Source of the DNA: a virus
Lineage: Duplodnaviria; Caudoviricetes
IMG/VR virus record: IMGVR_UViG_3300014613_000021
Span: 1 to 64,000 of that record
DNA: 64,000 nt
Strand: one strand, 5' to 3'
The translations under genes and the position numbers were made by a program. The notes below the pieces were generated by a model, which saw only the letters and a program-made list of their open reading frames with translations, was not told the origin of the DNA and made no database searches. This document shows, piece after piece, positions 487 to 42,274 of this stretch. The stretch's first letter is position 1. The number at the start of each line of letters is the position of its first letter.

Positions 487-540
487 TGCTAACACGGTAT
501 AAACCACATTAAAACGATGGTTTATACCCATCCGTTAGCA
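487..540 (-). repeat. attC-like recombination site A1 (54 bp)
   Basis: Minus strand TGCTAAC-GGATG-GGTATAAACCA...TGGTTTATACC-GT-GTTAGCA; stop codon of ORF 535-807 is the TAA in R''. Confidence 0.75.
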
Positions 541-807
541 ACAAGCGGAAGAAAGTTCCTGCTTCAATTTGCCAACCTTACGCACGGCATTTTTTTCATT
601 TAATGCCCATATTTTAATTCCATCAATATTAAATTCTTTAAGTCCTTGTTGTTTCTTGCGTTCTAATGCCTTTTGCTTACGCACACGCTCTATTTCTGCA
701 AGTTCTTCGGGAGTTAATTCTTCTCGGTAATTATGTCCACCAAACGAATCAGGCATCATTGCCCCCATCGCTGCAAACATCATCATTAATTGAGCCATTT
801 TTTTCAT
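535..807 (-). CDS. Cassette-borne hypothetical protein (90 aa)
   Basis: ORF bounded by attC A2 and A1; cassette start GTTAGCAAC is the exact complement of its R'' GTTGCTAAC. Confidence 0.75.
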   Translation of the reverse strand: MKKMAQLMMMFAAMGAMMPDSFGGHNYREELTPEELAEIERVRKQKALERKKQQGLKEFNIDGIKIWALNEKNAVRKVGKLKQELSSACC

Positions 808-832
808 AATTAAATTTTGTTAAACCGCCAGT

Positions 833-930
833 TGCTAACAAGCGGTCATAGTTAATAAAGCCAATTAAAGTTCGTGTTTCATAGCAAGCGGTGTGGATGG
901 CTTTACTAACCATACCGCCGGCCGTTAGTT
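833..930 (-). repeat. attC-like recombination site A2 (98 bp)
   Basis: Minus strand AACTAAC-GGCCG-GCGGTATGGTTAGTAAAGCCA...TGGCTTTATTAACTATGACCGC-TT-GTTAGCA; imperfect inverted repeat right after the HNH stop. Confidence 0.75.
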
Positions 931-1533
931 TTATGCACAAATGCTACGTTTGCATTCCATAAGGAAGATTCCCCATTGATTCGCCATAGCTTGTTTCCCT
1001 ATTCTTACAGCCCACTCTTGAAATTCATCTAAACTCATATCGCTTTTTGCATAATTACATATTTTACAACACGAAACAGAGTTTTCTTTAGTGTAATTTT
1101 TTGAGTTATCTATTCTGTCTATACCTGAATAAATAAAACCATCACCTATACTGTTCTTGGTTTTCTTAATATTATTAGGCTTAGAATCACAATAAAAACA
1201 ATTCATCTTAACCAATTTCTCAACGTCTTTTCTTGTTAACTGCCATTTAAAACCACGTCTTTCAGCGTGTCTTTTGTATCCTAAAATTATAGCCGTTATT
1301 TCAGAATGATTTTTTGATATTCGTTTTGACTTTTTTATTTCCTTACTCAAACAACCGCAACTTTTAGTGTTACCGCTTGTCATAGCCGAACCCATAACAA
1401 CCTTTTCCTTTCCACAGTCGCATTTTACCCTATACCATTTTCTCCATCTTTTATCTGATTTAGAAAATTCTAAAACTGTTAAGCGATTGAACTTATCCCC
1501 AGGTCGCAATTCAGGTTTATTATTTTTTGGCAT
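931..1533 (-). CDS. Phage HNH-type (His-Me finger) endonuclease, putative homing endonuclease
   Basis: N-terminal GDKFNRLTV..CDCG..SCGC DNA-binding repeat; CFYC and GIDRIDNSKNY..NSVSCCKICN nuclease motif. Confidence 0.8.
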   Translation of the reverse strand: MPKNNKPELRPGDKFNRLTVLEFSKSDKRWRKWYRVKCDCGKEKVVMGSAMTSGNTKSCGCLSKEIKKSKRISKNHSEITAIILGYKRHAERRGFKWQLTRKDVEKLVKMNCFYCDSKPNNIKKTKNSIGDGFIYSGIDRIDNSKNYTKENSVSCCKICNYAKSDMSLDEFQEWAVRIGKQAMANQWGIFLMECKRSICA

Positions 1534-1548
1534 TGTTAATAATATTAG

Positions 1549-2238
1549 TTATACATATTCAGCAAATATACGGTTTTTCTCTAAAATATGCAACTTATCC
1601 CATTCATCTAATGAATATCCACTTTCCATAAAAGCGGTAAATTGAACTGCAAGGGCTTGTGCAATGCCCGTAAAAGATTTGCTTCTTTCATTTGAATTAT
1701 CCCAAGCCTTCCTAATAGGTAATTTGCTTTTCCTCCTTGTTCCATCTTTTAGCAACCCTCCCCTTGTGCTGTTGCTCGTATAATGCCATTTTGGTTCTAC
1801 AATTTTTGTTGGCAATAAATCCGGCAAGTTTTTTAACCACAAGCACATTCTTTTTTTGAAAGGGTCGCCAAACTGAAAAGGGTTAATTATTTGATTGGGT
1901 TTTCTCCAGTTTGTGTTTAAAAAACCGGTTGGATTTTCAATTGATATGTGTCCACATTTGTTATTCCATATTTTCATCACAAAATCAACTGCCTGTTGTT
2001 GCCTGCCGTCAGCTTGTTTCTGTTTCCAGCTTGGAGCACCCGCCCCAGATAAATGAGTGCAAGGAGGAAAAGCAATTATTGCATGCCAATCATCGTTTAT
2101 GATGTCAAATAAATCCCCTTGATAATGTGGTAATCCTTTCGCTCCCGGAAGCAAATCACAGCTCATAGTATCAAAACCGGCATTTATAAATTGCTCAGTT
2201 ACTATTTGACTTTCCTCACAAGCTATTAGTATTTTCAT
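1549..2238 (-). CDS. DNA cytosine-C5 methyltransferase-like protein (short phage type)
   Basis: MKILIACEES start, catalytic FPPC motif, ENP motif, C-terminal ERSKSFTGIAQA; likely start is the ATG at 2238. Confidence 0.8.
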   Translation of the reverse strand: MKILIACEESQIVTEQFINAGFDTMSCDLLPGAKGLPHYQGDLFDIINDDWHAIIAFPPCTHLSGAGAPSWKQKQADGRQQQAVDFVMKIWNNKCGHISIENPTGFLNTNWRKPNQIINPFQFGDPFKKRMCLWLKNLPDLLPTKIVEPKWHYTSNSTRGGLLKDGTRRKSKLPIRKAWDNSNERSKSFTGIAQALAVQFTAFMESGYSLDEWDKLHILEKNRIFAEYV

Positions 2239-2259
2239 TCTATTCAAGTTTTGTAGTTA

Positions 2260-2295
2260 ACGTTTCATTTTTATTAACAATTACTCAATTATATA
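2260..2295 (-). repeat. Degenerate copy (34/36) of the 37-bp leader repeat also at 20769-20805 and 25474-25510
   Basis: Direct sequence comparison. Confidence 0.8.
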
Positions 2296-2306
2296 TAAAA
2301 ATTTGA

Positions 2307-3488
2307 TCAAATTATGTTTAATCTGATAGGGTTAAACGCTAACCCACTATTGACTATCTGTGAAACAACAGAATCGCCAAATGCTTTTCTGGCAATACCT
2401 ATGCTGCCATTTACATCTGCGTTTAATAATTTACCTATGGAACTTTGAAACAATCCACGAAACTTTCTTTTCCCTAAATACCTTTTTTGATGCTGCATTG
2501 ACTCATACGCCAAGTGGTCAACCTTTGATGTATGGTTTTCTTCCGGTAGCAGCACTCTGATACCTACGAGTTCTGCCTTGTAAGATATTTTATCAATAAG
2601 TCTCAAGTGTGGAAGGCATACAAACTTTTGGTTATTTGATTTACCTATGTTTATTGAATCTTTCCATCCCTTGTTATGACCAATTACAATTGTCCCTATG
2701 TTGTTTTCAACAGCATAATCAACAATAAACCTACTTATTTTATGAAGTTTATCCTCTATGAAATTGTTGCGATAGTGTGTCAGTTGTTTTATCCTGTTGG
2801 ACGTTCCACGATCACCAACATAAGACATTAGCTTTGCTTTGGTCTTATTGAACATTTGATTTACGGACTTCAAAACCTTACCGTTTATAATGAAAGAAGG
2901 CAATCCTACATTATTTACCTGCGTAGCGAAGTTATTCAGTCCTAAATCTATGGACAAGAATTTTGATGTGTCTAAATTTTCATTTATGATAGGTTGTTTA
3001 TTATAAACTACTTCAATTACAAAGCAGGTGGCCTGTGGCACTATACGCACTGAACAAACATTATCTACTTTAGTCTTTAATGGTTCAATAGTTCCTTTCG
3101 GAAAATATATGAATCCATCTTTCAGTCTTATCTGTTGCCCTGTGAAAATAATTAATGATAGTTGCTTTTTATACTTTGGCAACTTTGGTCTGCCTAAGAA
3201 TTTAGCAGGATTCTTTACCCACTCTTTTCTTGCTTTGTACCATGACTTATAATTCTGAAACAGTTTCTTTATTATCTGCTGCGATGTTTGAGCAGGTAAT
3301 GATCTGTAATTTTCTTCATTGAATTCTGCAAATAAACCAGAAAGCTCATATTCGCTGAAATGTTGTATCTTTCCAAATGTAGCCTGACGTAAATAGTACA
3401 AAGACTGATTATACAGGTTCTTTGCCTTAACGCAAATATCCTCTATCTGCTTGTCATTTATTACTATATGTCGCTCAACTAACTGCAT
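2307..3488 (-). CDS. tnpB: TnpB-family RNA-guided endonuclease (IS607-associated type)
   Basis: MQLVERHI N-terminus, RuvC-I SIDLGLNN, RuvC-III NADVNG, 393 aa, overlaps upstream IS607 tnpA remnant (TAATG). Confidence 0.9.
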   Translation of the reverse strand: MQLVERHIVINDKQIEDICVKAKNLYNQSLYYLRQATFGKIQHFSEYELSGLFAEFNEENYRSLPAQTSQQIIKKLFQNYKSWYKARKEWVKNPAKFLGRPKLPKYKKQLSLIIFTGQQIRLKDGFIYFPKGTIEPLKTKVDNVCSVRIVPQATCFVIEVVYNKQPIINENLDTSKFLSIDLGLNNFATQVNNVGLPSFIINGKVLKSVNQMFNKTKAKLMSYVGDRGTSNRIKQLTHYRNNFIEDKLHKISRFIVDYAVENNIGTIVIGHNKGWKDSINIGKSNNQKFVCLPHLRLIDKISYKAELVGIRVLLPEENHTSKVDHLAYESMQHQKRYLGKRKFRGLFQSSIGKLLNADVNGSIGIARKAFGDSVVSQIVNSGLAFNPIRLNII

Positions 3489-3655
3489 TATTCTGAAATA
3501 ACCTGTTTGATTGCTTTGTCTTTTCGCTTACTGTATAATTTCATAGAATAACAATGAAGCAAAGAAACTATTTCTTCAAATATTTCCTCGCTGTCTAATT
3601 TTGCGCTCCCAACCTCAGAAATAACAATGATTTTTGCACCAAATTTATTAATAAG
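3488..3655 (-). pseudogene. tnpA: 5'-truncated IS607 TnpA serine recombinase remnant
   Basis: Frame reads KFGAKIIVISEVGSAKLDSEEIFEEIVSLLHCYSMKLYSKRK..*, the IS607 TnpA C-terminus; no in-frame start. Confidence 0.75.
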
Positions 3656-3674
3656 TTTTCCATTGTTTTAAATT

Positions 3675-3860
3675 TTAACAAGTTATAGCAAGAAATCCCA
3701 TCGCCTCTGGCGTGGGTGGGTAGTTCACTTTCTTAGCATAGTCGCAATCTGTTTCATAGAGGTTGCATAAATGTTTGTGTTTATAATTAGCACAATCAAA
3801 AGGTCGAATCGTACAACCTATTTTAGTCCTTTTCGCTTCATTTAAGTCCATTTTTTTCAT
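3675..3860 (-). CDS. Small Cys-rich hypothetical protein with C-terminus derived from the IS end
   Basis: ORF track; last residues VNYPPTPEAMG are read through the IS hairpin. Confidence 0.45.
   Translation of the reverse strand: MKKMDLNEAKRTKIGCTIRPFDCANYKHKHLCNLYETDCDYAKKVNYPPTPEAMGFLAITC
3692..3728 (-). mobile_element. IS200/IS605-type terminal hairpin (putative left end)
   Basis: GTGAACTACCCACCCACGCCAGAGGCGATGGG, identical over 32 bp to 44071-44102; replaces the C-terminus of ORF 3675-3860. Confidence 0.65.
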
Positions 3861-3874
3861 CCGTAATGGGTAGT

Positions 3875-4066
3875 TTACTCCTCTTGGTAATTAACATTCT
3901 TTGACTGCCTCATAACACCCCTTATTCTCATTGCGTCCTTTAATAATTCAGGGTCAGGGTCAGACCAATGTCCGCACTCGCCATTATTGCAAATAAATCT
4001 ATCCCGATAGTACATTCCCCTTCTCATTGAACACCCGCATTTTGGACAAAATCTAATATATTTCAT
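3875..4066 (-). CDS. Small zinc-ribbon protein
   Basis: CPKC...CNNGEC. Confidence 0.55.
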   Translation of the reverse strand: MKYIRFCPKCGCSMRRGMYYRDRFICNNGECGHWSDPDPELLKDAMRIRGVMRQSKNVNYQEE

Positions 4067-4282
4067 GCTCTTTCCCTCTCTTTTGCTTCCGGGTCTTATT
4101 CTTCATCTGCCCGTTTTTATGATTTCTTTTTAAAACATTTTTAATAACATGAATCTCAAAGTTATCAAAAATATCCGTTTCTTCCTCAAAATAATTACTG
4201 TGTTTTTTCATTGTTATCTATTTTTGTGAACCACCCCTTGCCTAAAAACGAAAGTAAGTCTCATCATAATTTTCACATTTTT

Positions 4283-4318
4283 ACTATATATAGTTTAATA
4301 CTATATATAGTAAACTTA
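4283..4318. promoter_or_regulatory. Palindromic TATATA-rich operator or promoter-like motif, copy 1
   Basis: ACTATATATAGT twice in tandem followed by AAACTTA; similar to 8831-8866. Confidence 0.45.
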
Positions 4319-5203
4319 CTTTTTACCTTCCTTTTTCTTTTTAATTAAATCTAACATATCTGCCTTTATTGAATCAGCTAAATCATTTATTTCCTTAATA
4401 TCCTGTATGTTTTCTTCTCTCAAAGCAAGCCTTTCTTTCTTCTTTACATTTTCTTCATTTACTTTTTTTATTTCATCCCAATTATAAATCATCTTAGTTA
4501 TTGAGGGAATCAAGTCAGTCTCAACATCTTTCTCCGGCTTCTGCATCCCGGAAAACATCGCATAATAACTTTTATTAAGTTGAGTTAATAATTCAAGTGA
4601 ATTTAACCCTAACCTGGCAGAAACCTTTGCCACAACAATATTCATTAAGGATAAATCTTGAAATAACTCCTGGTGGATATGAACCTGAATACTCTCCTTT
4701 ACTTCCATACTTAAACTACCATATATTCGGTAATCCTTTCGTTCAGGGGCATTTAACCCCAATATCTTTGACCTCTCAGATATACACCATTGAACACCCT
4801 TTAAATATTCCGGGTTTCCACTTTGTATCACCTCCTCAGTAATAAATTCCTTCTGATACTTATCAACCTTCTCTTTAGTCTTCTCTAATAACTTTAGTTT
4901 CACAGAAGACGGCTTTTCAATAAACCTCTGTTTCTTCCTTTGATGATCTGTCCTTGATTTCTCCCATGCATCCCAATATTCAACTTCAAGTACATCTATT
5001 TTAGCAAGCTGTTTAGAAATAGCTTCTCCGGTGTGAATCATTACCTGTTCATTCCACTGTTTTCTTAACGCCTTTAAATCAAGACTTATTTGCTGTTGTG
5101 TAACCCCCACAACCTTACATATCTCTGACTGAGGGTTTCCCTTTAAATATAGTTCAGATACTAATAAAAGCCTTTCTTCAACTATGGCTTTTTTCTTAGG
5201 CAT
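4316..5203 (-). CDS. HTH protein, possible terminase small subunit
   Basis: N-terminal HTH LYLKGNPQSEICKVVGVTQQQISLDLKALR; ERSKILGLNAPERK resembles phage TerS-like proteins. Confidence 0.4.
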   Translation of the reverse strand: MPKKKAIVEERLLLVSELYLKGNPQSEICKVVGVTQQQISLDLKALRKQWNEQVMIHTGEAISKQLAKIDVLEVEYWDAWEKSRTDHQRKKQRFIEKPSSVKLKLLEKTKEKVDKYQKEFITEEVIQSGNPEYLKGVQWCISERSKILGLNAPERKDYRIYGSLSMEVKESIQVHIHQELFQDLSLMNIVVAKVSARLGLNSLELLTQLNKSYYAMFSGMQKPEKDVETDLIPSITKMIYNWDEIKKVNEENVKKKERLALREENIQDIKEINDLADSIKADMLDLIKKKKEGKK

Positions 5204-5339
5204 TTTTTCACAAGTTTTTTAATACAAACAACAATGAAAACTTAGTTATTTTTATAAATTACTTATCCTCAATAATTTAACTTATGTTATGATTCTTTAA
5301 GTTTCGGAATTATGGATTAATTGGTATTTGCTATTTTCA

Positions 5340-6167
5340 TCACATATTTAATTTTCCTTGCCCGTTTTTATCCGGTTTACGTTTTGCCTCTTTTAATACT
5401 TTTGGCATTGACGGCAATTTCAATACGTGACCGTCCAATATTTCTCGCACTGTTACGATTTTTAATTTTTCAAACTCCATATTAAAAAGTTTGTTTTTAT
5501 ATTTTCCTGCCTGCCTAATTTCGTTTATCATATCCCTTGTCGGTTCGTACAATGTAACGTACTTTGATAAATACTTTGGACTTACGTGGTGATGCTGCCC
5601 CATAATCTGACGTTCAACAATAGCCCAAAAAGATTCGATGCTGTTTGTATTGATACCACGATAGGAATACAGCTTCTTATGGTTAATCTTTATCGTGTCA
5701 ATGATTTTGTGAAGTTTAACCTGTGCCGTATCCGTATCCATCAACAAAACAGAATTATCTTTATCCACGTATTTTTCAACCAATTCTTTTAACTCTGCAT
5801 AGGTCGTATGCTGAATTACCTGTGCGATAACATCGCCGCCACGTTTAACTATTCCTGCAACAGTTTCACCGGCTGCGCCCTTGCCCCGTTTCTGTTTACC
5901 AATTTTGCAGGGCTTTTTATATTCGCCCTCCTTAAACTCATAACCAATTGCCTCGTATTTCTCCTTTGCTTCATCAAGCTCAGGTATATAGTGCGGAGTT
6001 CCTTTTTTTTCTGCTTGGCATTTACGGGGTTTGCCTCCTACTAATGTAGTATCAATCTCAAGTACGTCATCCAAAATTACATCTTTATTTTCTATTGCCA
6101 TCAGGTCTCGAATTGTACAGCACATTTTATAAACTGCAATCCATCCGGAATCTTTAATTTCCTTCAT
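5340..6167 (-). pseudogene. Chimeric ORF: truncated IS1595-family (ISXO2-like DDE) transposase fused to the C-terminal tail of a methyltransferase/restriction-endonuclease-type protein
   Basis: VLEIDTTLVGG..KRGKG..NSIESFWA..HHHVSPKYLSKYV then an abrupt switch to TLYEPTRDMINE..KIVTVREILDG; no N-terminal Zn ribbon. Confidence 0.65.
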
Positions 6168-6384
6168 TTTCTTTCTTTTTTACTCTATAATTAATGCACA
6201 CAAGTTCATTACTACCCTTTGCACATGAATAATTTTCTAATTCATTTTCTTCCTCAAATGACTTTCTTTTCTTAAAATCACAATCACCTTTCTTTTTATT
6301 GAAAAAAATACATTCTGTTTTCTGATTCTGGTTACAAGAACCTTTTGACTTTACTTCAATCACTTCTCTGTCTTTGTACTTCAT
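6154..6384 (-). CDS. Hypothetical protein
   Basis: ORF track, operonic packing. Confidence 0.5.
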   Translation of the reverse strand: MKYKDREVIEVKSKGSCNQNQKTECIFFNKKKGDCDFKKRKSFEEENELENYSCAKGSNELVCINYRVKKKENEGN

Positions 6385-6570
6385 CTCTTTACCCTTTCTT
6401 TTTTCCTTTCTATTACCACTTGTCTTGCGTACATATCAGCCTCATATTCCGTTTTAAAAAACTCTGATCCTTTTTCTGTTTCTATTACCCAATATTGAGT
6501 GAATCCGGACTTATACTTTATGTAGTCTCCGTTTGTTTCGTATCCTATTTGTGTTTTCATCTTTATCTTT

Positions 6571-7038
6571 TTACTTTCTTTCCTTTAACCATATCATAAA
6601 CTCAAATAACTTTAATTGATTCTCAACGTCAATTGAACCATCTTTTGTAAAACCTAATAATCCAAATAATTTCTTTTCTATTTCTTCCAGGCTTACTTTA
6701 AATACCCTTTCTGATTCAATCCCTAAACTCTTTTTTATTACCATCATTGACTCCGATAACATATCCTCAACCTCTCTATCATTTACTTTTATCCTGTTCT
6801 GAATAGTCTTTATCGCATAAATAACCGTCGCATGATTCCTGTCAATTGTGTTGCCTATTTCTCTGAGACTGAATTTTGCCTTGTATATTTCTTTTATGCA
6901 ATAACAAAATAACATCCTTATCATTACTATTTCATGCTTTCTATCCTTTGACTTTACTTCTTTAACAGAGATATTATAATACTCTGAAAAGTCCTTTAAG
7001 ACTTTATTTAGTCCGACAGTTTCCTTTCTCTCTATCAT
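6571..7038 (-). CDS. DnaA C-terminal (domain IV-like) HTH protein
   Basis: YNISVKEVKSKDRKHEIVMIR...SLREIGNTIDRNHATVIYA matches the DnaA_C pattern. Confidence 0.7.
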   Translation of the reverse strand: MIERKETVGLNKVLKDFSEYYNISVKEVKSKDRKHEIVMIRMLFCYCIKEIYKAKFSLREIGNTIDRNHATVIYAIKTIQNRIKVNDREVEDMLSESMMVIKKSLGIESERVFKVSLEEIEKKLFGLLGFTKDGSIDVENQLKLFEFMIWLKERK

Positions 7039-7286
7039 TTTTCTTCTTTTATGATTTCTTCTGTTATCAAAGAAAAATTAAGTAAATCTGAATAATAATC
7101 AATGAAACGATCAAAATCACTGTAACACATCAAAAAGGCTTTCATGTAAACGCCCTTATATTGCTTACAAATCTCCTTAGCTATTTTAGAAACAGAATAT
7201 AACCAGTATTCTTTACCGGTATCCTCTATCCTAAAATCTATTTCAATCGTTTTCATATTATCTAAAAAGTTTAATATTACCTTCAT
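7035..7286 (-). CDS. Hypothetical protein
   Basis: ORF track, overlapping neighbours. Confidence 0.5.
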   Translation of the reverse strand: MKVILNFLDNMKTIEIDFRIEDTGKEYWLYSVSKIAKEICKQYKGVYMKAFLMCYSDFDRFIDYYSDLLNFSLITEEIIKEEK

Positions 7287-7471
7287 TCAGTTGACTCTCT
7301 ATTTCATCAAGTATATTTAATTGTATAACGCCAGTAACAGACTCTTCTATCATATTCCTGAGACCTTCACTTATATTAAATCCTCTGTTCTTACAATATT
7401 TTTGTAACATCTCATATTGACGATCATCTATTACAAACCCTATGTGCTTTGTTTTCATTTTTTTTCTTTTT

Positions 7472-7479
<8 letters not shown>
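7258..7479 (-). CDS. Ribbon-helix-helix-like small DNA-binding protein
   Basis: HIGFVIDDRQYEMLQKYC...NISEGLRNMIEE. Confidence 0.5.
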
Positions 7480-8812
<1,333 letters not shown>

Positions 8813-8830
8813 CTCTTTTATTTTGTTTTT

Positions 8831-8866
8831 CTATTATATAGTATTATTACTATATAATAGAACTTA
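8831..8866. promoter_or_regulatory. Palindromic TATATA-rich operator or promoter-like motif, copy 2
   Basis: Perfect inverted repeat CTATTATATAGT-N6-ACTATATAATAG followed by AACTTA, upstream of the ParB-MTase. Confidence 0.45.
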
Positions 8867-8875
8867 GTTTATTTT

Positions 8876-9115
8876 CTATTCAATTTCAATGTGAATTTTA
8901 TTTACCCACACCTCTCTTTCAACACGAACACTTATTCCACAATATGTTTCTAATTCAATTTCCTTTACTTCTTTGCCCGTACATAAAAGAATGTTTTCTT
9001 TTAATTCACTCTTAAATTTTTTATACGTCCGTTCATCTAACCTTAATATTTCTGGATTAATCCCTCTTTCTTCTGCAACATCTATCAATTCATTTATTAG
9101 CTCTCTTATTTCCAT
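8876..9115 (-). CDS. Hypothetical protein
   Basis: ORF track. Confidence 0.55.
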   Translation of the reverse strand: MEIRELINELIDVAEERGINPEILRLDERTYKKFKSELKENILLCTGKEVKEIELETYCGISVRVEREVWVNKIHIEIE

Positions 9116-9203
9116 TTTAACCTTGTTTATTTTTGTTTATAGTAAGTTTCTTTGAAATTTAATGATTATACCTTATTCAAAAGAAAGGGTTCATTAAAAG
9201 GCT

Positions 9204-9386
9204 TTAAAATAACTCACATTCGATTTCTGCACTTTCACTATCTTCTTTTGTTTCTTTAGTGAAATATTTACCCCAACATTCGTCAATAAGTTTACCTCCA
9301 CATCCACAGTCAAATCCGAAACAACAAATTCTTATTTCAATTTCTTTTTCCAAACTTGCTCGTAAATATAACCTGCCAAAAGACAA
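9204..9386 (-). CDS. Small hypothetical protein
   Basis: ORF track. Confidence 0.4.
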   Translation of the reverse strand: MSFGRLYLRASLEKEIEIRICCFGFDCGCGGKLIDECWGKYFTKETKEDSESAEIECELF

Positions 9387-9422
9387 ATCATAATTGCTGA
9401 TAATGTCATTAAAATTCCCATT

Positions 9423-9614
9423 TCACAAACTTATTTTAAACTTAATTTCAACCTCTTTCTTTGTACCAAATTCCACCTTTCCAAGATCAATCTCAAAAAC
9501 ATCTTCCCACACAATCATATACAGGTCATTAAACCCGGTCTTAATTACATGAATCATTTCAGGTTCATCTTCGTGTTGAAATGATTTGATTTCTATTTTT
9601 CTTTCTATCCACAT
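9423..9614 (-). CDS. Small hypothetical protein
   Basis: ORF track. Confidence 0.5.
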   Translation of the reverse strand: MWIERKIEIKSFQHEDEPEMIHVIKTGFNDLYMIVWEDVFEIDLGKVEFGTKKEVEIKFKISL

Positions 9615-9666
9615 AACATTAACTTCTTTTAGTGAAATCTTCTCTTTTCGTGAACTAAATTTTCAT

Positions 9667-9698
9667 TAAAAATATAAAACTTATATTTAACATCCAAA
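9667..9698 (-). promoter_or_regulatory. Bacteroidota-type promoter (TAnnTTTA variant)
   Basis: TTTG-N20-TATTTTTA. Confidence 0.55.
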
Positions 9699-9743
9699 TA
9701 TTTTAACCTTTATTTTTCAAACAAAAATGTAACCTGTTTATTT

Positions 9744-11468
9744 TCAAACACCACAAACACCACCCTTACCTGACATCTCACATACATCATGACACCTTTC
9801 CTCAAATTCTTCGCCTTCATTCAAAGAAGCCATTTCGTAAGATACGGGAACTAATGGTTGACCTCCCCTTGCCATGTCTGGGTAGCAAGTGAAACCCCTT
9901 AATCTGTGAGCGTATTTAACAAGTATATAAGCAAAGTCCTTTATATTATTTTCATTATTTAATTCAGTTCCCCAAGCAGGAAGATTTATTGTTGAGGCAA
10001 TTGCCTGGTCAACATAATCCTGAACATCTGCCTGAAACTTAATCCTTCTTTCAGGGTCTTTTGCCAACCCTAATGCCGTTTCGATTTCATTCGGATTAAG
10101 TCCATGCTCATTTATTAAATGCTTTGCTGTTCCATCAATAACATATTGATATTTCCAGTCAAATTTGTTTTTGAGATACCTCCTTTTGTAGGCAATAGCA
10201 ATTAACGGTTCTATCCCTGTCGTTGTCCCTGCTAAAATACCTATTGTTCCTGTCGGAGCTATTGCCCTGAAAGCCTTTGGTCTGGAAATATTTAATTTAT
10301 CTGCTAATTCAATAGCAGATTTTTCAGATTCTTCTTTGTAAACCTTTAACCATTCATGTAACTCAGATACAACCTTATACCGATAACCCCTCTTTAAAAG
10401 CCACTCATGTACACCTAACAAACCAAGTCCAAGTCTCCTGTTCTTTTCTCTTACTTTATACATTTTTTCATAAGGTAATTTAGCAACTAATGTACCGCAC
10501 AAAAGAAACCTTACCCCAAGCCTGACACATTTTCTAAAATCTTCAATAGAATCAACATTAGCCATATTAATTGAGCCTAAGTTGCAAACATCAGAGTCAT
10601 CTTCTGAACAAATTTCTCCACAAGCATTTTTTAATGTTTCTTTTTCTTTTTCAAAGAAATTAAAGGCAAAACCAGGCTCTCCTGTTTTTAATGCCTGATG
10701 AACGTTTCTGTAAAAAACATCAGGGATGTTTTCAATAAATAAATTACCTTTATTTTCCAATCTTCCCTTTATTACATTAATCGGTAATTGATAAATTTCT
10801 TCAAGAAAAGCATTGTCATAATTTATTGAAATATTTGTCATATCTAATGGGGCTGGAAAATTAAAGTCAGTTTCCTTTACTTTTCCTACTGACAAATGAT
10901 TCCCTAACAAATCAAACGCTCCTGCTATTTTAAGATTATACCAATCTTTAACATGAAGCAATTCATTAATATCTCCATGTTTCCAATTCAAAGAAGCAAA
11001 GATTGCTGATCGCCTACTCCCACCCTGCATTACTTCACGGCCTATCTCGTTAATTATTTTCATTTTTGATATTGAGCCTGAAGCAACCCCCCCAGTCCTT
11101 TTTATTTGCTCCCCTTTTGGCCTGTAAACAGAATAATCACAGCCTATTCCCCCACCTGTCATTAAACATGACTCTGCTTTCCAAGATAGGCTTGCCCAAT
11201 CTTCACGTGAATCACATTCTGCTTTTAAAAGAAAACAGTTATTATAGAACTTATTATCTCGACCTGCATAATACAAATACCTCCCCCCGGCAATAAACTG
11301 CATTTTTCTGTGAATCTCTTTCAGTTCACTCAACTCATCTTTACTTAGTTTCCCTGAACAAACATCGTCTACAACTAAATTAGAAAGTTTTTCCCATGTT
11401 TCAGCCCCTTCATGCCAATATTTATTCTGAAATATTGTCTTTCCAAAATCAGTACGAAAATTACTCAT
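9744..11468 (-). CDS. nrdJ: Ribonucleotide reductase large subunit, probably class II (B12-dependent)
   Basis: NNCF, NACGE, CNLGSIN, IAPTGT motifs; C-terminal Cys pairs; no ATP cone and no nrdB-like neighbour. Confidence 0.75.
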   Translation of the reverse strand: MSNFRTDFGKTIFQNKYWHEGAETWEKLSNLVVDDVCSGKLSKDELSELKEIHRKMQFIAGGRYLYYAGRDNKFYNNCFLLKAECDSREDWASLSWKAESCLMTGGGIGCDYSVYRPKGEQIKRTGGVASGSISKMKIINEIGREVMQGGSRRSAIFASLNWKHGDINELLHVKDWYNLKIAGAFDLLGNHLSVGKVKETDFNFPAPLDMTNISINYDNAFLEEIYQLPINVIKGRLENKGNLFIENIPDVFYRNVHQALKTGEPGFAFNFFEKEKETLKNACGEICSEDDSDVCNLGSINMANVDSIEDFRKCVRLGVRFLLCGTLVAKLPYEKMYKVREKNRRLGLGLLGVHEWLLKRGYRYKVVSELHEWLKVYKEESEKSAIELADKLNISRPKAFRAIAPTGTIGILAGTTTGIEPLIAIAYKRRYLKNKFDWKYQYVIDGTAKHLINEHGLNPNEIETALGLAKDPERRIKFQADVQDYVDQAIASTINLPAWGTELNNENNIKDFAYILVKYAHRLRGFTCYPDMARGGQPLVPVSYEMASLNEGEEFEERCHDVCEMSGKGGVCGV

Positions 11469-11522
11469 ATAGTATAGAAGTTATATTTTTTATGAAATGC
11501 TTTCTTAAAGATAATAATTTTC

Positions 11523-12980: not shown

Positions 12981-13266
12981 TCTCTCTTTCTTTCTCTTGA
13001 TAAATCTTAATTACAGGTCTTGTGTCCATCGGATCACCGTAAAAAATATAAATACACTCTCCATCTTCATCTTTGAACCAGATACCTCTTTTATGAAGTT
13101 TTTCAAATAACCCTTTATCTACATAAATAATCAAAGGAATCCACTGATTAAGAATCCTTTTTATTATTTCATCCAGATTAGGCTTTATTATCTCCCTTAA
13201 TTCAGGAATATTTACTGCATTATATACAGTACCAAGTTTCTTTACGTAAAATTTTAATTGTAGCAT
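12970..13266 (-). CDS. Hypothetical protein
   Basis: ORF track, overlaps helicase start. Confidence 0.55.
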   Translation of the reverse strand: MLQLKFYVKKLGTVYNAVNIPELREIIKPNLDEIIKRILNQWIPLIIYVDKGLFEKLHKRGIWFKDEDGECIYIFYGDPMDTRPVIKIYQEKERENVF

Positions 13267-13337
13267 GGGTTATACTGTTTTTGTTTTCAAATTTCGTAAT
13301 AGTCTGTGTTTTCCATATTGATTTTCAGTTAATTAAG

Positions 13338-13375
13338 AGGGGTTGTGTATATATAATAGTTAGCAACAATATGGG
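13338..13375 (-). repeat. Truncated attC-like site B1 (R'' and left arm only)
   Basis: Minus strand CCCATATTGTTGCTAAC-TATTA-TATATACACAACCCCT; R'' region complements the cassette start at 14400-14416 in 15/17 nt; no right arm found. Confidence 0.6.
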
Positions 13376-13407
13376 CTTAGTTCGTACCTCGTTTGAAAGT
13401 TTGTCGG

Positions 13408-14418
13408 TTAATCCCATAATTTTAAAATATTTTTGCCCTCGCACTTTGGCTTTTTCAAAGCCATTTGGATAGCATCATAGTAAGTAACTCCATTATTTGT
13501 TAGTTCCATTGCTGTTTTATATGCTTTAGGTTCAATTTCTTTTAATCTTTCAAATCTATCATCGTATTGGCAACCAAAACCGCAAACCATACAACCTGTT
13601 TGCGTTTCTCCTTTATCGTAAATTCCACAATAAGGTATTTTGTTTTTTCTTATAAAATCCCATTTATTTTCCTCAGTCCAAATTGATAAAGGATAACTTG
13701 CAATTCTTTTTGTATCAAATGAATTACATCCAGTAACCAAATATTTTTGTTTGCGTAATGTACTCTCATTTACTGATGTTCCGATGATTGGCTTTAATCC
13801 TGTTTCTTTCTCAAATTTAATAGCAGGTTTTTTCTTCAAATAATAGCAACATTTTTCAGATATTTCAAAAGGTGCATTTATTAAGTGTTGCCATTTATTC
13901 GATATTTTACCCTGATATGGTTTATCTGGTCTTCCATTTAATCTTAAATATTTATGCTTTTCGCTTTTCGCATGGCGATATTCTCTCAAATATTGCGATT
14001 GTTCTTTCGATATTAAAGGAAAGCCAAATTTTTCAATTACTTGTTTTAAGTTCATTTCAGGTTGCACCCATTCTATTCCATCTATATTTTTTAAAAACCT
14101 ATACATCTCAGGAAATTCATTTGTAGTGTTGAAAAATATTGCTCTAATATCTTTTTTTATTATCCTTGATAGATATAAAAGTATTGTACTGTCCTTACCT
14201 CCCGAATACGAAACATAAGCAGGATTAACGCCCATAAAAACATCAATAGTTTCAAGAGAATGAAATATCTTTTGTTCAAGCGTCCAACTTAATCTTTTGT
14301 TAAGTTCAGTAGTTGTTATTTTGTTTTCTTTTTTCCCCACCTTAAAATATTTTAAAATTATTACTGTGTTCCTCGTATTAGCATTTATAGTAATTGTCGC
14401 CCATACAGTTGCTAACAC
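13408..14418 (-). CDS. PAPS reductase-family protein, cassette-bounded
   Basis: SYSGGKDST PP-loop, KKKPA, YPLSIW, TGCMVCG; true start may be the downstream GTG (VGKKENK). Confidence 0.85.
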   Translation of the reverse strand: MLATVWATITINANTRNTVIILKYFKVGKKENKITTTELNKRLSWTLEQKIFHSLETIDVFMGVNPAYVSYSGGKDSTILLYLSRIIKKDIRAIFFNTTNEFPEMYRFLKNIDGIEWVQPEMNLKQVIEKFGFPLISKEQSQYLREYRHAKSEKHKYLRLNGRPDKPYQGKISNKWQHLINAPFEISEKCCYYLKKKPAIKFEKETGLKPIIGTSVNESTLRKQKYLVTGCNSFDTKRIASYPLSIWTEENKWDFIRKNKIPYCGIYDKGETQTGCMVCGFGCQYDDRFERLKEIEPKAYKTAMELTNNGVTYYDAIQMALKKPKCEGKNILKLWD

Positions 14419-14469
14419 GTCCTATATGTCATGGCGAAAAGCCACGCCACATAGCCCTATTCGTTGTGT
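14410..14469 (-). repeat. attC-like recombination site B2 (60 bp)
   Basis: Minus strand ACACAAC-GAATAGGG-CTATGTGGCG...CGCCATGACATATAG-GACGT-GTTAGCA. Confidence 0.7.
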
Positions 14470-14475
14470 GCAATA

Positions 14476-14715
14476 CTACCCAGCGTTAATACCAAGTAAC
14501 TTATTAAACTCTTGCATCACTTCTCCATCACCAGTAATCTTATGTATTCTGCTTTGAAGTTGAGTAATATCATTTTCTGTAAAATTACTCTCACTTAAAG
14601 ATTCAATACCTTCTTTTATTCGTTTCATATCGGCAGCCGAATCATATTCTTCCCGTTCTGCTGCGAGTTTCATTGAGCGTGTAAGCTCTGTAATTGCATA
14701 TTCATTTATTCTCAT
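14476..14715 (-). CDS. Cassette-borne small protein with UVR-like coiled motif
   Basis: LAAEREEYDSAADMKRIKE; cassette start GTTGTGTGCA complements its R'' TGCACACAAC exactly (10 nt). Confidence 0.7.
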   Translation of the reverse strand: MRINEYAITELTRSMKLAAEREEYDSAADMKRIKEGIESLSESNFTENDITQLQSRIHKITGDGEVMQEFNKLLGINAG

Positions 14716-14725
14716 ACCGTACTGC

Positions 14726-14856
14726 ACACAACAACAAATATAAATCAGTGGGGTTGCTGGTGTCTTTTTAACCCACGTGCCTTGTAATTAAGTTTGTAGC
14801 GGTTTGAAAGTGCAAGGCTTCAAATCCCCACCGCTTCATATTTTCGACCGTTATAA
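14726..14856 (-). repeat. attC-like recombination site B3 (131 bp)
   Basis: Minus strand TTATAAC-GGTCGA-AAATATGAAGCGGTGGGG...CCCCACTGATTTATATTT-GTT-GTTGTGT. Confidence 0.75.
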
Positions 14857-14985
14857 AACAGTTTGCCCCTTACAAGCTGGACAAACTTCATCAATCAGTG
14901 GGTTACAATTAGGGAATACCCTTCTACCTTTGCCATCACATAGAGGGCAAACCGATCCGTTAAAAATCAGAGCACATTTATTATT
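14851..14985 (-). pseudogene. 5'-truncated DnaJ-type zinc-finger mini-ORF ending in the B3 R'' box
   Basis: Frame KCALIFNGSVCPLCDGKGRRVF...CPACKGQTVL*; two CxxCxG motifs, no canonical start. Confidence 0.55.
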
Positions 14986-14989
14986 TACG

Positions 14990-15550
14990 TTACCTCATGT
15001 ATTTATCAATTCCCGATTTTACCTTTCTTACTCTATTTTTGTCTTTTGCTTTAAAATCCCGTATTGTGTTTAAATCCTTTTTTAATAATTCTTCATTCTC
15101 CTTACTCGTTAAAAGCTTTTCAATAGAAACAACCTCCAAATAAGTTTGTTTAACCTGAGAAACTTCACAAAGAAAAGTTTCGTTATTTCTTACAAACTCG
15201 CTTTTCTCTTTATTCAGAAAACAAATAATTTCTTCTTCTGTTTTTCCAATTAGCCTTTTATATCCCTTTCTTTCATCAAATACTTTCAAAAAATGAATCC
15301 GGACAGGATCTCCTACTTTATATGGTAAAACCTTGTTAATTGGTATAAGTTGTTCCGAAAACTCAGTTTCATTTCCATCGTTCACAATCTCACACACCCA
15401 CTTTTCACCATCTTCAAACCACTTTCCTGCAAGAGTTTTAAAAGACAAAACCTTTCCGTCTCCGGTTTTTCCTGTAAAAATATATTTTCCACTTTTACTT
15501 TCATTTTCGATAACAGTTACCTGAACTGTCTGTTTTTCGCCCGCTTTCAT
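14990..15550 (-). CDS. Hypothetical protein with repeated beta-barrel-like segments
   Basis: ORF track; internal repeat GKT..GKVLSF / GKT..EEIICF. Confidence 0.55.
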   Translation of the reverse strand: MKAGEKQTVQVTVIENESKSGKYIFTGKTGDGKVLSFKTLAGKWFEDGEKWVCEIVNDGNETEFSEQLIPINKVLPYKVGDPVRIHFLKVFDERKGYKRLIGKTEEEIICFLNKEKSEFVRNNETFLCEVSQVKQTYLEVVSIEKLLTSKENEELLKKDLNTIRDFKAKDKNRVRKVKSGIDKYMR

Positions 15551-15556
15551 GGTTTA

Positions 15557-17530: not shown

Positions 17531-17532
17531 TT

Positions 17533-35662: not shown

Positions 35663-35684
35663 AATTTTTATATTTTAAAATTTA

Positions 35685-37138: not shown

Positions 37139-37167
37139 TGTTTTTTAAATAATTTTCAATAATCATA

Positions 37168-38532
37168 TCAATAAAAGTTTTCAATCGTTTTCATCCTATC
37201 ATAAAACCTATCATACCGATAATTCTGATAAATTTTAATTGTTTGTCCTGCTTTGAAGTGCCTTAATTTATCCAAATAAATCCTCATCATTCCATCCCTA
37301 TATTCATCTTTTGTTTGATTCAGAGACATCACGAAACTAAATGAATTTGTTAATTCTTTTGTATTTGAAGCATAATGCCTGTCTATAACCCACTCCGGAT
37401 CATTCCATAAAGTTGGAGGCACATCACTTGCTTGTGTAGGGACAGTTACCCTTGTTTGATATTCAACAGCAATATTTTTTAATTTATCGGCAATCGCTTC
37501 CCTTCTTTGCTTTTCATCATTTACACCATATCTTTTGCCGTTTCCGGGATGGGAAATTTTTTCAAGATAATCTATATAAACATCGTCAATCCGGCCATGT
37601 ATTTTGATTAAATCAGAAACAAATAATTTTATATCAAACATTGAAGCAGACTCAAACTGTTCGTAAGCATGAACATAAATATCTGACCCTTTTGCTCTTA
37701 TATCTTTTACTATCTTTTGAAGTTTCTGATATGTTTTATTATGTATATTACCAATTTTTACATCACTCATTAAACAAGCCGTCCAAGTAGCATCATAACC
37801 ATTTAAGCATTCTTGCTCCGAACCTTCCAACTGAACATGAGCAACTAAATTACCTCTCCTTGCCGAATGAACTGCCATGTGTCGGACACATTTCGTTTTA
37901 CCAACCCCTGACCGGGATATTACCAGTGTTGTGTCAGTTACATCTTTCCCTCCATTAGTAATATCATCAATTTCATCAATTCCAAAAGGTATCTTGTGAA
38001 TAAACTTACTTGTTTTTGAATTTATAACTCTTATTTTGTTTCTATTTTCAAAATCACCAAATATTGATTCATAATATTTAGTCCCCTTTTTAATTGAAAA
38101 AGTAGATAGTTTTTCAGAAAATTTATTTAACTCTCCCCTTGCTTTTTCTTTCTCACCCTTACTATAAGTCTCACCAAATTTATAATAAAAGGTTTCTGCC
38201 ATTGCATCTTTTAAAAAATCCTCAAGTGACTCCATTGCAGAATCAACTTCAAGTACATCAGCTTCTTTTATTTTTTCAAGTAATTCAACTGCATCCTGAT
38301 CTTTTTTAACCCTTCTGTCAAAATACTGAGAAATCATACCAATAGTAGGAACTTTCTTCGTTTCACTTATTGAATATTCAGTCTTTATAGCTTTCCAAAT
38401 TTTTTTATATCCCTCGATCGGAAGATAGCTATATTCTAAATGTTCAATTAATATACTGATAACCTTTGAGTTTCTAAAACAAAGTTTAAACAATTCATTA
38501 AGAAAATTATCACTGAGTTTGTTTGAGGCCAT
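37168..38532 (-). CDS. Replicative SF4 (DnaB-like) helicase
   Basis: SRSGVGKT Walker A, QLEG, YIDY Walker B, TQA, LDKLRH. Confidence 0.8.
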   Translation of the reverse strand: MASNKLSDNFLNELFKLCFRNSKVISILIEHLEYSYLPIEGYKKIWKAIKTEYSISETKKVPTIGMISQYFDRRVKKDQDAVELLEKIKEADVLEVDSAMESLEDFLKDAMAETFYYKFGETYSKGEKEKARGELNKFSEKLSTFSIKKGTKYYESIFGDFENRNKIRVINSKTSKFIHKIPFGIDEIDDITNGGKDVTDTTLVISRSGVGKTKCVRHMAVHSARRGNLVAHVQLEGSEQECLNGYDATWTACLMSDVKIGNIHNKTYQKLQKIVKDIRAKGSDIYVHAYEQFESASMFDIKLFVSDLIKIHGRIDDVYIDYLEKISHPGNGKRYGVNDEKQRREAIADKLKNIAVEYQTRVTVPTQASDVPPTLWNDPEWVIDRHYASNTKELTNSFSFVMSLNQTKDEYRDGMMRIYLDKLRHFKAGQTIKIYQNYRYDRFYDRMKTIENFY

Positions 38533-38582
38533 TTATTATAGATAATTCGCTATAAATATAAATAATATATTTTGAAAACCAA

Positions 38583-40232: not shown

Positions 40233-40868
40233 CTAAATTTCAAATGTATCCCTGAACCTTTCTTCTTTTTTTTCTTCTTTTACAATAACTGTGCTTTCTC
40301 TAAAGCAATTTGCAAAATATTTAAATAAGCGCATTGTTGCCTCTGTATCTGGCATAGCTCTGTGAGCGTCCACAAGATTAAACCCGGATTTCTGACAACA
40401 AGTACTTAACTTATGGTTTTTCATTGTATCATCCAATCCCCATTTTAATCTTGAGATACACATAGTATCCCACATAAAACTATCCACAACAGAATATAGG
40501 TTTTTCTCACAAAACTCAAAAGCATATTCAAGAAATGGTGAGTCAAAACTTTTAAAATTATGTCCAACCATTTGAATCTTTTTATACTTACCCATCTTTA
40601 ACATTGAAAAGGCTTCGGTTAATTCGTCAACTATATCTTTTATCTCTCTTCCTTCTTTCTCAAGTAATTCAGGTATTATTCCTGTTACCTTTTGAGCTTC
40701 TGGACTGTAAAATAAGCCATTATAATTTTTTACTAATGATTCATATCTATATATTTCTTCCAAATTAGTATCAAGAAATATAATAGCTATTTCAGTTATT
40801 GGGTTTTTTTCAGCAGAAAAACCTCCTGTTTCGAGGTCTATTACTGCAAAATTATTGTCATAAATCAT
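40233..40868 (-). CDS. DEDDh 3'-5' exonuclease (Pol III epsilon-like)
   Basis: IDLETGG, GHNFKSFD, AHRAMPD. Confidence 0.9.
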   Translation of the reverse strand: MIYDNNFAVIDLETGGFSAEKNPITEIAIIFLDTNLEEIYRYESLVKNYNGLFYSPEAQKVTGIIPELLEKEGREIKDIVDELTEAFSMLKMGKYKKIQMVGHNFKSFDSPFLEYAFEFCEKNLYSVVDSFMWDTMCISRLKWGLDDTMKNHKLSTCCQKSGFNLVDAHRAMPDTEATMRLFKYFANCFRESTVIVKEEKKEERFRDTFEI

Positions 40869-40984
40869 TTGAGATAATTTTTTTTATTAATATTTAGTTT
40901 TATTTCACAATCTTTATAATTTTGTTATTCATTTCACTGTATTTTAATTAATTAAAATTTAAAAAAGTAATAAACGAAGTTAAC

Positions 40985-41009
40985 TACCACTGCATATTAG
41001 TTATAAGCC
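40985..41009 (-). repeat. Truncated attC-like site C1 (R'' and short left arm)
   Basis: Minus strand GGCTTATAAC-TAATA-TGCAG; R'' complements the cassette start GTTATAAGCC (41758-41767) exactly. Confidence 0.6.
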
Positions 41010-41783
41010 ATTAGCCCAACGCTCTGTTGCTTCCTTATATATTTCCGTGTCCAATTCGCTTAATATCCATTTTCTATTTAAACTATCTGCCACCTTACCC
41101 GTAGTTCCGCTACCACCAAAGCAATCAAATACAGTCTCGTTTTCATAAGAATAATATCGTATTACATTTTCCGCAAGTTTTTTTGGGAAGGATGCTGTGT
41201 GCCAACTTTTGGTTTCGGGTTGTATTTCCCACACGTTAGTTCGTTCATATTCACCGTTCACAAAGCTGTTATTTTGTAGTACCTTATCAATCAAAAAATT
41301 GGCTTTTTTCTTAAATACAAGTACATATTCTGTAACTATGTTCGGCTTGTATGCTACTGGCTTTCTATGTCTGTAAAACCCACCATTTCTATTCGCTGCT
41401 GCTCCATCAGGTTTCTTCCAAATTATATCTTCCAAAAACTCAAAGCCAATTTTCTCCATCATTGGTACAAAGTAGTAAGGTAATGGTATTCGGTAGCTTT
41501 GTTCACTACGTTTCTGCCTCTTTACAAGTACAGGGCTAATATTAATTACACACATTCTACTTGGTTTTAGCACTCGTTCAATCCCAAAAAAAACTTGCTC
41601 CATTTCGTGCATATAATCCGCTACACTACTATATTGGCTGTATTCTCTTGCATTGTAGTAAGGTGGCGAAGTGAACACTAAGTCTATGCTATTATCATCG
41701 AGTCTATTTATAGTTTCTTTACAGTCCTCATTCCAAAATTCCCCACGCTCAAATAACGGCTTATAACACGTGGTTAACGTCAT
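41001..41783 (-). CDS. Cassette-borne DNA N4C/N6A methyltransferase (beta class)
   Basis: FTSPPY, WHTASFP, FDCFGGSGTT; stop in R''; nearest in-frame ATG lies inside the upstream attC. Confidence 0.85.
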   Translation of the reverse strand: MTLTTCYKPLFERGEFWNEDCKETINRLDDNSIDLVFTSPPYYNAREYSQYSSVADYMHEMEQVFFGIERVLKPSRMCVINISPVLVKRQKRSEQSYRIPLPYYFVPMMEKIGFEFLEDIIWKKPDGAAANRNGGFYRHRKPVAYKPNIVTEYVLVFKKKANFLIDKVLQNNSFVNGEYERTNVWEIQPETKSWHTASFPKKLAENVIRYYSYENETVFDCFGGSGTTGKVADSLNRKWILSELDTEIYKEATERWANGL

Positions 41784-41891
41784 TGCCTTTTTCTTCGTTG
41801 ATAATTTCTTGGTTTTCCATGTTTTGTATTTCAATTAAAGTTTGTACTAAATTTAAGGTCGGCAACGAACGCCAACCGTCAAACATTATAG
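41761..41891 (-). repeat. attC-like recombination site C2 (131 bp)
   Basis: Minus strand CTATAAT-GTTTGAC-GGTTGGCGTTCGTTGCC...GGCAATGACGTTAACC-ACGT-GTTATAA. Confidence 0.7.
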
Positions 41892-42218
41892 CCAATATGA
41901 AATAAACTTACCAGCCATAAATAAAAGTCCGAATATTGCAATTAATCCTATCATTTCAACGCATTTATTTTGGAAGTGCTGTTTAAACGATAGCTTTGAC
42001 CTACTTACACATTTACCTGAATAAGATAAATGTATCCTTATCCAGTAAGTCATTTCAATTGCACTATCAATATTACCTTTGCAAAATTGAATAATCATCC
42101 ATCCTATTTCCCAAAATAAATGCTCAGCCCAGTTAAACATACTGGCTATAATACCGCATAAAACCAATAAAGGTTTCAGTGCATTTCGTAGGTTAGTAAT
42201 TCTATTTAAGTATTTCAT
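41886..42218 (-). CDS. Cassette-borne small membrane protein
   Basis: C-terminal hydrophobic helix; stop in R'' of C2; cassette start ATTATAGCCA complements R'' TGGCTATAAT. Confidence 0.65.
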   Translation of the reverse strand: MKYLNRITNLRNALKPLLVLCGIIASMFNWAEHLFWEIGWMIIQFCKGNIDSAIEMTYWIRIHLSYSGKCVSRSKLSFKQHFQNKCVEMIGLIAIFGLLFMAGKFISYWL

Positions 42219-42274
42219 ATATTGATAATTAAGTGTTTCAAATTCCTTTACTGGTCTTATGCAAAACGTTATAA
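42146..42274 (-). repeat. attC-like recombination site C3 (129 bp)
   Basis: Minus strand TTATAAC-GTTTT-GCATAAGACCAGTAAAGG...CCTTTATTGGTTTTATGC-GGT-ATTATAG. Confidence 0.7.

Follow-up and report, generated by a model that had tools for sequence, protein, structure and literature searches.

The stretch of DNA analysed here, referred to as the window, comprises bases 1-64000 of the linear 88,406-bp IMG/VR virus contig IMGVR_UViG_3300014613_000021 and carries six attC-like hairpins, grouped as three clusters of two sites each, together with the genes that these sites accompany. The contig has an estimated completeness of 78% and carries all of its genes on the minus strand. Genes for a DNA polymerase, helicases, a large terminase and a baseplate wedge protein identify the virus as a tailed phage. 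No close phage relatives were found in GenBank by megablast, and the best IMG/VR relative of the 657-aa helicase encoded in the window is only 39-44% identical. The three clusters are probably orphan arrays of an integron-like, site-specific cassette system that is widespread in phages of Bacteroidota.

All six hairpins are present on the minus strand, which is the gene-sense strand, at the coordinates given beforehand by a sequence-only reading of this DNA; the attC layout on the coding strand that it had assigned to them is borne out by the sequence and by covariance models. In gene sense, every site consists of a box ending in AAC, a spacer of 5-8 nt, an imperfect stem-loop, a spacer of 1-5 nt and a box starting with GTT, with single bulges in some of the stems. 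Two cores deviate from this layout, the crossover box of site E having AAT and the distal box of site F having ATT. Cluster 1 holds site A (484..543) and site B (830..933), cluster 2 holds site C (14407..14472) and site D (14723..14859), and cluster 3 holds site E (41758..41894) and site F (42143..42277). Site A represents a minimal class and is made up of box GTTGCTAAC, a 5-nt spacer, an 11-bp stem, loop TCGTTTTAATG, a 2-nt spacer and box GTTAGCAAC. Site B has a stem-loop of ~79 nt, site C belongs to a short class, and sites D, E and F belong to a long class.

The hairpins have no extended sequence in common within the window genome, and the boxes flanking one hairpin share little beyond AAC/GTT. 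Box pairing spans genes, not hairpins, with complementarity joining B to A (13/15), D to C (13/15) and F to E (15/16). The GTT boxes of sites C and E are complementary to the hairpin-less terminal half-sites CATATTGTTGCTAAC (13359..13373; 13/15) and GGCTTATAAC (41000..41009; 10/10), respectively. These complementary stretches extend past the common core into cassette-specific bases. The 9-mer GTTGCTAAC alone, with one mismatch allowed, shows no enrichment; what sets the sites apart is their position and pairing, not how often the motif occurs.

Independent detection was based on two covariance models built solely from sites of other phage contigs, R1 from 50 such sites and R2 from short classes. 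R1 gave full-length matches to D, F and E, with E-values of 2.9e-11, 4.4e-11 and 6.9e-8, respectively, and the top four matches of R2 were A, E, B and C, with E-values of 1.7e-4, 8e-4, 2.3e-3 and 0.011. The six sites are the complete set of model matches, every one on the minus strand, with nothing further in the window or in bases 64001-88406. A bounded hairpin detector, run with shuffled controls, called 199 sites in 1.46 Mb versus 46 in the shuffles. The sites have the attC-type form of imperfect hairpins of ~50-150 bp with AAC/GTT cores, their structure being conserved over sequence, and all six, read on the gene-sense strand, follow the design of the wider phage family, in which ~5 nt separate AAC from the stem-loop and 1-3 nt separate the stem-loop from GTTA. 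With at least two attC-type sites and no integrase, as judged by the models built here and not by IntegronFinder, the arrangement corresponds to a cluster of attC sites lacking integron-integrases (CALIN).

The genes and array ends of the three clusters also lie on the minus strand. In cluster 1, a cassette gene for a 90-aa protein of unknown function (535..807; phrog_37413) is flanked by GTTAGCAACTGGCGG and CCGCTTGTTGCTAAC (13/15). An HNH endonuclease gene (931..1533; phrog_374, 1.3e-18) has an AAC|TAATAT half-site on one side and site B on the other, fitting exactly between them; it is free-standing and has no complementary 5' box, and may therefore represent an independent insertion of its own. 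The half-site ATGTATAAC (1548..1556) coincides with the stop codon of a gene for a 232-aa DNA methyltransferase (1549-2247) and is followed by TAATATTATT without a hairpin. Homologues of this methyltransferase are cassettes in the L180, L181, L217 and L201 arrays.

Cluster 2 carries a cassette gene for a 336-aa PAPS-reductase-fold protein (13408..14418; PF01507, 2.3e-22), a cassette gene for an 83-aa protein of unknown function (14476..14727), flanked by GTTGTGTGCAGTACG and AGTATTGCACACAAC, and a zinc-ribbon mini-cassette (14850..14975) that has no canonical start codon and ends in the 16-mer CAAACTGTTTTATAAC. A pattern scan found no IMG/VR relatives of the 90-aa and 83-aa cassette proteins. 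The 46 nt after the terminal half-site (13313..13358; TATTATATATAC...AAAATCAATA) are homologous to the attI-like sequence and recombinase leader of other phages, being identical to the leader of L173, L175 and L181 at 38/47 positions, with a score of 27 versus a shuffle maximum of 22. Behind this sequence lie a tiny open reading frame (ORF) and an unrelated 98-aa gene, and the recombinase gene is absent.

In cluster 3, a cassette gene encodes a 277-aa N6/N4 DNA methyltransferase (41001..41834; PF01555, 2.8e-40), and the terminal half-site is followed by TAATATGCAG without a hairpin. A second cassette gene (41886..42218), of ~85-110 aa with a likely start ATG at 42142, has no family match, and its product appears hydrophobic from a reading of the translation alone. 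An 87-aa ORF (42269..42532) is read as a fusion of two cassettes by comparison of the junction with relatives. This junction has no GTT and reads TAC-CTGCT-ATAAAATCGG in the window versus TAAC-CTGCT-GTTATAAAATCGG in relatives; because it has TAC for TAAC, the upstream ORF runs into a zinc-ribbon mini-cassette (42268-42376).

Cluster 2 thus has both an attI-like array end and a half-site, and clusters 1 and 3 have the half-site; attI similarity at the ends of clusters 1 and 3, after 1548..1556 and 41000..41009, is within the shuffle range. Three left-arm remnants of hairpins had been described previously. All three elements are present (~1548-1556, 13359-13373 and 41000-41009), but at least 13359-13373 is best read as a normal terminal half-site adjoining the attI-like sequence and not as a decayed hairpin. 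The zinc-ribbon (CxxC...CxxC) mini-cassette, of ~110 bp with ends GTTATAAAATCGGTTTGC and GCAAACTGTTTTATAAC, is found at 14850-14975 and 42268-42376 in the window and in 97 IMG/VR stretches. In other arrays, a spacer of just 4-5 nt (CTGCT) takes the place of the hairpin before it.

The 16-mer preceding hairpins D and F recurs ahead of numerous different hairpins of this design in 97 IMG/VR stretches, and same-strand arrays reach up to 11 sites per 10 kb. One array-bearing phage (G002) encodes a 274-aa tyrosine recombinase ~60 nt past the last cassette, and the identical arrangement is seen in three diverged homologues of this recombinase. A profile made from the four recombinases retrieved 367 viral contigs, with counts taken on the best 80 loci. 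Around the recombinase gene at these loci, same-strand sites number 168 upstream and 4 downstream, and opposite-strand sites 7 and 5; at least one site is present in 46 of the 53 loci having at least 2 kb of upstream sequence. Between array and gene lies a conserved attI-like sequence, AAC|TAYTATATGTA, ~55 nt before the ATG, and the half-site at this attI-like site fits the GTT box of the last hairpin in 30/45 loci. Spacers in the family are mostly 4-5 nt on the 5' side and mostly 1 nt on the 3' side. Box complementarity of at least 11/13 characterises 56% of adjacent sites versus 0.5% of random pairs, and pairing between the boxes of one and the same site is no better than random. The window sites have direct counterparts in this family, site F being 78% identical to the hairpin nearest the recombinase in G002 and G024, and site B being 79.5% identical to a site of L115 in a match that covers the GTT box and ends at the AAC box.

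Comparing related phages for cassette gain, loss or reordering, a check suggested along with the sequence-only reading, gave a positive result in other family members, with near-identical phages differing by whole cassettes through gain, replacement and reordering. Contigs that share a 100% identical recombinase and attI differ in the terminal cassette joined to this attI, of which there are four. For one 331-bp cassette the position is attI-proximal in L171, L174 and L176 but internal in L173, and (C)TAAC is all that the block edges have in common. The homology between site B and its L115 counterpart begins just past AAC and spans the GTT box, the genes downstream being unrelated, and the last cassette before attI has no hairpin behind it. 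These comparisons place the crossover upstream of each hairpin in gene sense, within the AAC box (AA|C), and assign the hairpin to the gene that lies downstream. A cassette accordingly consists of hairpin, GTT box, ORF and AA-ending box, in that order. A crossover at G/TT, with the hairpin owned by the upstream gene, had been proposed earlier; the breakpoints fall at the AAC box instead, and assignment of the hairpin to the upstream gene was rejected by both breakpoints and hairpin homology.

Contrary to the integron arrangement, the hairpin precedes its own ORF and the ORFs point towards attI. ORF coverage falls on the site-sense strand in 28/28 phage arrays versus the opposite strand in 8/8 bacterial arrays, and owing to this reversed gene-to-site polarity the phage cassettes cannot simply be host cassettes. 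A further rearrangement is seen in G010 (L153-L157), where a multi-cassette block is perfectly duplicated in tandem (6,235 bp) at positions 81151-93620 in L115 orientation. Both ends of the duplication fall at TAAC|G, in line with a crossover at AAC; it reflects either unequal site-specific recombination or an assembly artefact.

The family recombinases retain the catalytic R, K, HxxR, H and Y, and their best model matches are XerA-type. Their alignment to VchIntIA falls into two pieces (176-201 opposite 179-247), with ~40 residues absent at the IntI-specific insertion, and the TIGR02249 score of the family recombinase lies under the cut-off. Since the IntI-specific insertion is absent, these enzymes are not IntI by the accepted definition. 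The enzyme suggested earlier, an IntI, therefore gives way to the ~274-aa Xer-like recombinase without the patch-III insertion that family arrays adjoin. The earlier statement that the window has no integrase agrees with searches of the whole contig, in which no tyrosine recombinase was found by PF00589 (E-values up to 1) or by the family profile (E-values up to 10). The recombinase is also absent from 19/24 array-bearing records searched. In G025, a distantly related contig of nearly equal length (88,301 bp) whose helicase shares 44% identity with that of the window, a 31-aa C-terminal recombinase fragment (KTTEIYTHV motif) lies at L320:1430-1600, right after a half-site ending in GATTGCTAAC; it resembles a decayed recombinase gene.

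Recombinase homologues with 34-42% identity are common in Bacteroidota genomes, and the two bacterial homologues scanned against NCBIfam have 385-404 aa with an N-terminal extension. At 80 bacterial loci, the predominant site position is downstream of the gene on the opposite strand (62 sites). Such chromosomal arrays, for example in Christiangramia and Winogradskyella, share their site design and a homologous recombinase with the phage arrays. They differ in that the array lies past the stop codon of the recombinase gene, the ORF comes first and then the hairpin, the ORFs run opposite to the site sense, and the enzyme has 385-404 aa compared with ~274 aa in phages. As in the phages, an attI-like site adjoins the recombinase gene in three Flavobacteriia chromosomes (L270, L283 and L279), where the sequence AAC|nnGTTATATCnnnnCAAATATA (site strand) lies at most ~30 nt from the stop codon; cassette ORFs run away from it, and the first cassette begins with a half-site.

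In 6/6 window sites, folding is more favourable for the gene-sense strand than for its complement, by 0.5-4.2 kcal/mol, and the same bias is seen in 90/110 family sites. When detection is restricted to Watson-Crick pairs, the bias is kept in phage sites (43 vs 10) and in bacterial sites (20 vs 5). The better-folding strand in bacterial arrays is antisense to the genes, and the bias thus tracks site polarity, not transcription, which argues for a single-stranded DNA substrate over an RNA element. A terminator scan of positions 1-15600 returned no T-run after the stems and no terminator-like call on the true stem of sites A-D, and inspection of the sequence alone likewise revealed no T-run at sites E and F. 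GTTA boxes follow the stems. Intrinsic terminators were considered as an identity for the hairpins and rejected, the stems being without a T-run. The repeated extended hairpin sequence and promoter excess expected of promoter early stem-loop (PeSL) units are not seen in the window.

In the proposed mechanism, a cassette read in gene sense would extend from the last base of the AAC core through a ~5-nt spacer, an imperfect hairpin, a 1-3-nt spacer, the GTT box and the ORF to the AA-ending box. Once a cassette is free as a circle, pairing of its two boxes outside the hairpin would yield an attC-like folded site on the gene-sense strand, with crossover at AA|C. In the many other phages whose array ends at the attI-like AAC|TAYTATATGTA upstream of the recombinase gene, this Xer-like enzyme is most likely responsible for inserting, excising and shuffling the cassettes; we infer both its catalysis and the single-stranded folding of its substrate. 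The cargo of the window phage would consist of DNA methyltransferases, the PAPS-reductase-fold protein, the HNH endonuclease and small unknown proteins, and the earlier suggestion that attC-like sites bound mobile cassettes with accessory and DNA-modification genes is supported. As the attI-like site and leader of cluster 2 have no recombinase gene behind them, present mobility would need a recombinase in trans. Complete phages with intact arrays and no recombinase are common, which makes supply in trans a live possibility. The recombinase fragment in G025 makes loss of the gene in the lineage of the window phage plausible.

Several observations weigh against an integron-like cassette system in the window. 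The recombinase is without the I2 insertion, which IntI needs for attC recognition, and the link between enzyme and sites appears as an association in sequence comparisons. Complete genomes with large arrays but no recombinase exist (G001, with 15 R1 matches), and the G010 duplication may be the artefact of assembly. No recombination has been seen for the window phage itself, and because no close relative of it was found, the evidence of cassette polymorphism comes entirely from other family members. The recombinase could also sit in the missing ~22% of the genome. In addition, some of the window sites look degraded, with AAT/ATT cores, a fused junction and two array ends without above-shuffle attI similarity.

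The alternatives differ in what they take the hairpins to be and in whether the sites still recombine. The hairpins separate co-oriented genes, lie on the transcribed strand and have pairs compatible with G-U; they could act at the RNA level or in regulation, as terminators, processing sites or PeSL-like units, with shuffling by homologous recombination between repeats. PeSL elements do drive modular shuffling in T4-type phages (PMC2839356). This explanation is very improbable, given that the stems have no T-run and no terminator-like call falls on a true stem, that the hairpins differ within the genome and thus offer little homology for recombination, and that cassette-specific boxes are complementary across genes. 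Moreover, the better-folding strand tracks site polarity even when it is antisense to bacterial genes, and the association with a tyrosine recombinase is one-sided and tight. A canonical CALIN would instead consist of cassettes from a host integron in which the upstream gene owns the hairpin, and a host IntI would recombine them at G|TT in the box downstream of each hairpin. Such an origin is unlikely, since the breakpoints of relatives fall at the AAC box upstream of the hairpins, hairpin homology extends into the GTT box and not the AAC box, the last cassette of each array abuts the attI-like site without a hairpin, ORF-to-site polarity is reversed between phage and bacterial arrays, and the array-adjoining recombinases of phages and of the tested bacterial loci are without the IntI insertion. 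It would nevertheless account for the attC-like layout, the AAC/GTT cores and the lengths of 54-131 bp, and it is consistent with the homologous arrays in Bacteroidota chromosomes and with the recombination by IntI1 of one attC from Polaribacter phage P12002L (PMC9892861), a phage that has sites of the present family.

With regard to present activity, the integron-like cassette system admits two states in this phage. Bacteroidota phages could run their own system, with a short Xer-type enzyme without the IntI insertion acting on folded single-stranded sites at AA|C and with a phage-only pool of reverse polarity, in which recombinase-less arrays remain functional and are shuffled in trans by co-infecting phages or host homologues; this is put forward tentatively, its prospects falling slightly short of even. 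It is also possible, if rather doubtful, that the system worked in an ancestor and that the sites of the window phage are inert fossils that no longer recombine. Inertness would suit the lack of a recombinase in the contig, the AAT/ATT cores, the decayed junction fusing two ORFs, and the presence of just a recombinase fragment in the distantly related G025. Against it, box complementarity of 13/15 to 15/16 equals that of arrays beside intact recombinases, the strand-biased fold is kept in every one of the hairpins, and the common occurrence of complete recombinase-less phages with large intact arrays suggests supply in trans.

The phage arrays share with integrons the single-gene cassettes, the imperfect hairpin sites with AAC/GTT cores, a fixed insertion site beside a tyrosine recombinase gene, better folding of one strand, and complementary cassette ends that arise from crossover in one core only. 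They differ from integrons in the ~274-aa Xer-like enzyme without the IntI patch-III/I2 insertion, in the hairpin standing before its ORF with ORFs heading towards attI and recombinase, and in their location in phage genomes, the window phage being without a recombinase gene. The spacers appear to differ as well, being 4-5 nt versus 1-2 nt in the phage family and ~6 versus 5 nt, with extrahelical bases, in canonical attC sites. In the CTX phage, whose attP is used with XerCD, an Xer-type enzyme likewise acts on a hairpin of one DNA strand; there the whole phage genome integrates at dif via host enzymes, and cassette arrays, an attI beside a gene and a phage-encoded enzyme are not known to be involved. 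PeSLs are reportedly conserved promoter-plus-terminator sequences that recombine by homology. Their stem-loops flank accessory genes in plastic regions of T4-type phages with gene gain, loss and shuffling (PMC2839356), which resembles the present case. The window hairpins differ in varying in sequence and in having AAC/GTT cores and complementary boxes, with the family lying beside a site-specific recombinase.

The system is less new than the sequence-only reading had implied, as CALINs in virulent phages have already been published, including that of P12002L, a member of the present family. Qi et al. 2023 describe 17 phage CALINs, treated as rare and usable by bacterial IntI, with HattCI/Infernal runs calling sites in P12002L and IntI1 recombining 5/6 of the phage attCs assayed, including the one from P12002L (PMC9892861). 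These CALINs resemble the window arrays in being attC clusters without an integrase in virulent phages, with DNA methyltransferase cassettes. The phage recombinase, the attI-like site and the reversed polarity are not described in the sections of that study that were consulted, and a literature search, not covering all journals, found no description of any of the three with such arrays. P12002L carries five sites of the present family, one of which has the loop of site A. Both of its arrays (L152, ~29150-29240 and 37180-37270) end at one repeated ~65-nt sequence, AAC|AACGGATAAAACAAGTTTTACC..., which differs from the attI-like consensus of recombinase-bearing phages.

If an integron-like system of this kind operates in Bacteroidota phages, site-specific cassette capture would be a common route by which they swap counter-defence and DNA-modification genes, and cassette capture would be neither solely bacterial nor a rare phage curiosity. 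Recombination of attC-type hairpins would then be possible with a small Xer-like enzyme without the domain held essential in IntI, which would bear on the evolution of integron integrases. The reversed polarity would imply separate cassette pools for phages and hosts. In the window phage, the system would account for why methyltransferase, PAPS-reductase-fold and HNH genes occupy three small islands within the conserved modules for replication and packaging.

Two minor sequence features complete the description of the window. The 11-nt loop TCGTTTTAATG is invariant in minimal-class sites of unrelated phages, occurring at window 496-528, at ~30010-30050 in P12002L (L152), at L181:117-176 and at L211:4195-4255; this invariance suggests a putative sequence-specific contact in the loop. 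Two intergenic perfect 15-bp palindromes with a common core, TTTACTATATATAGT / ACTATATATAGTAAA and TTCTATTATATAGTA / TACTATATAATAGAA, lie at window 4280-4314 and 8829-8862. They are not related to the cassette sites and may be operators or terminators.

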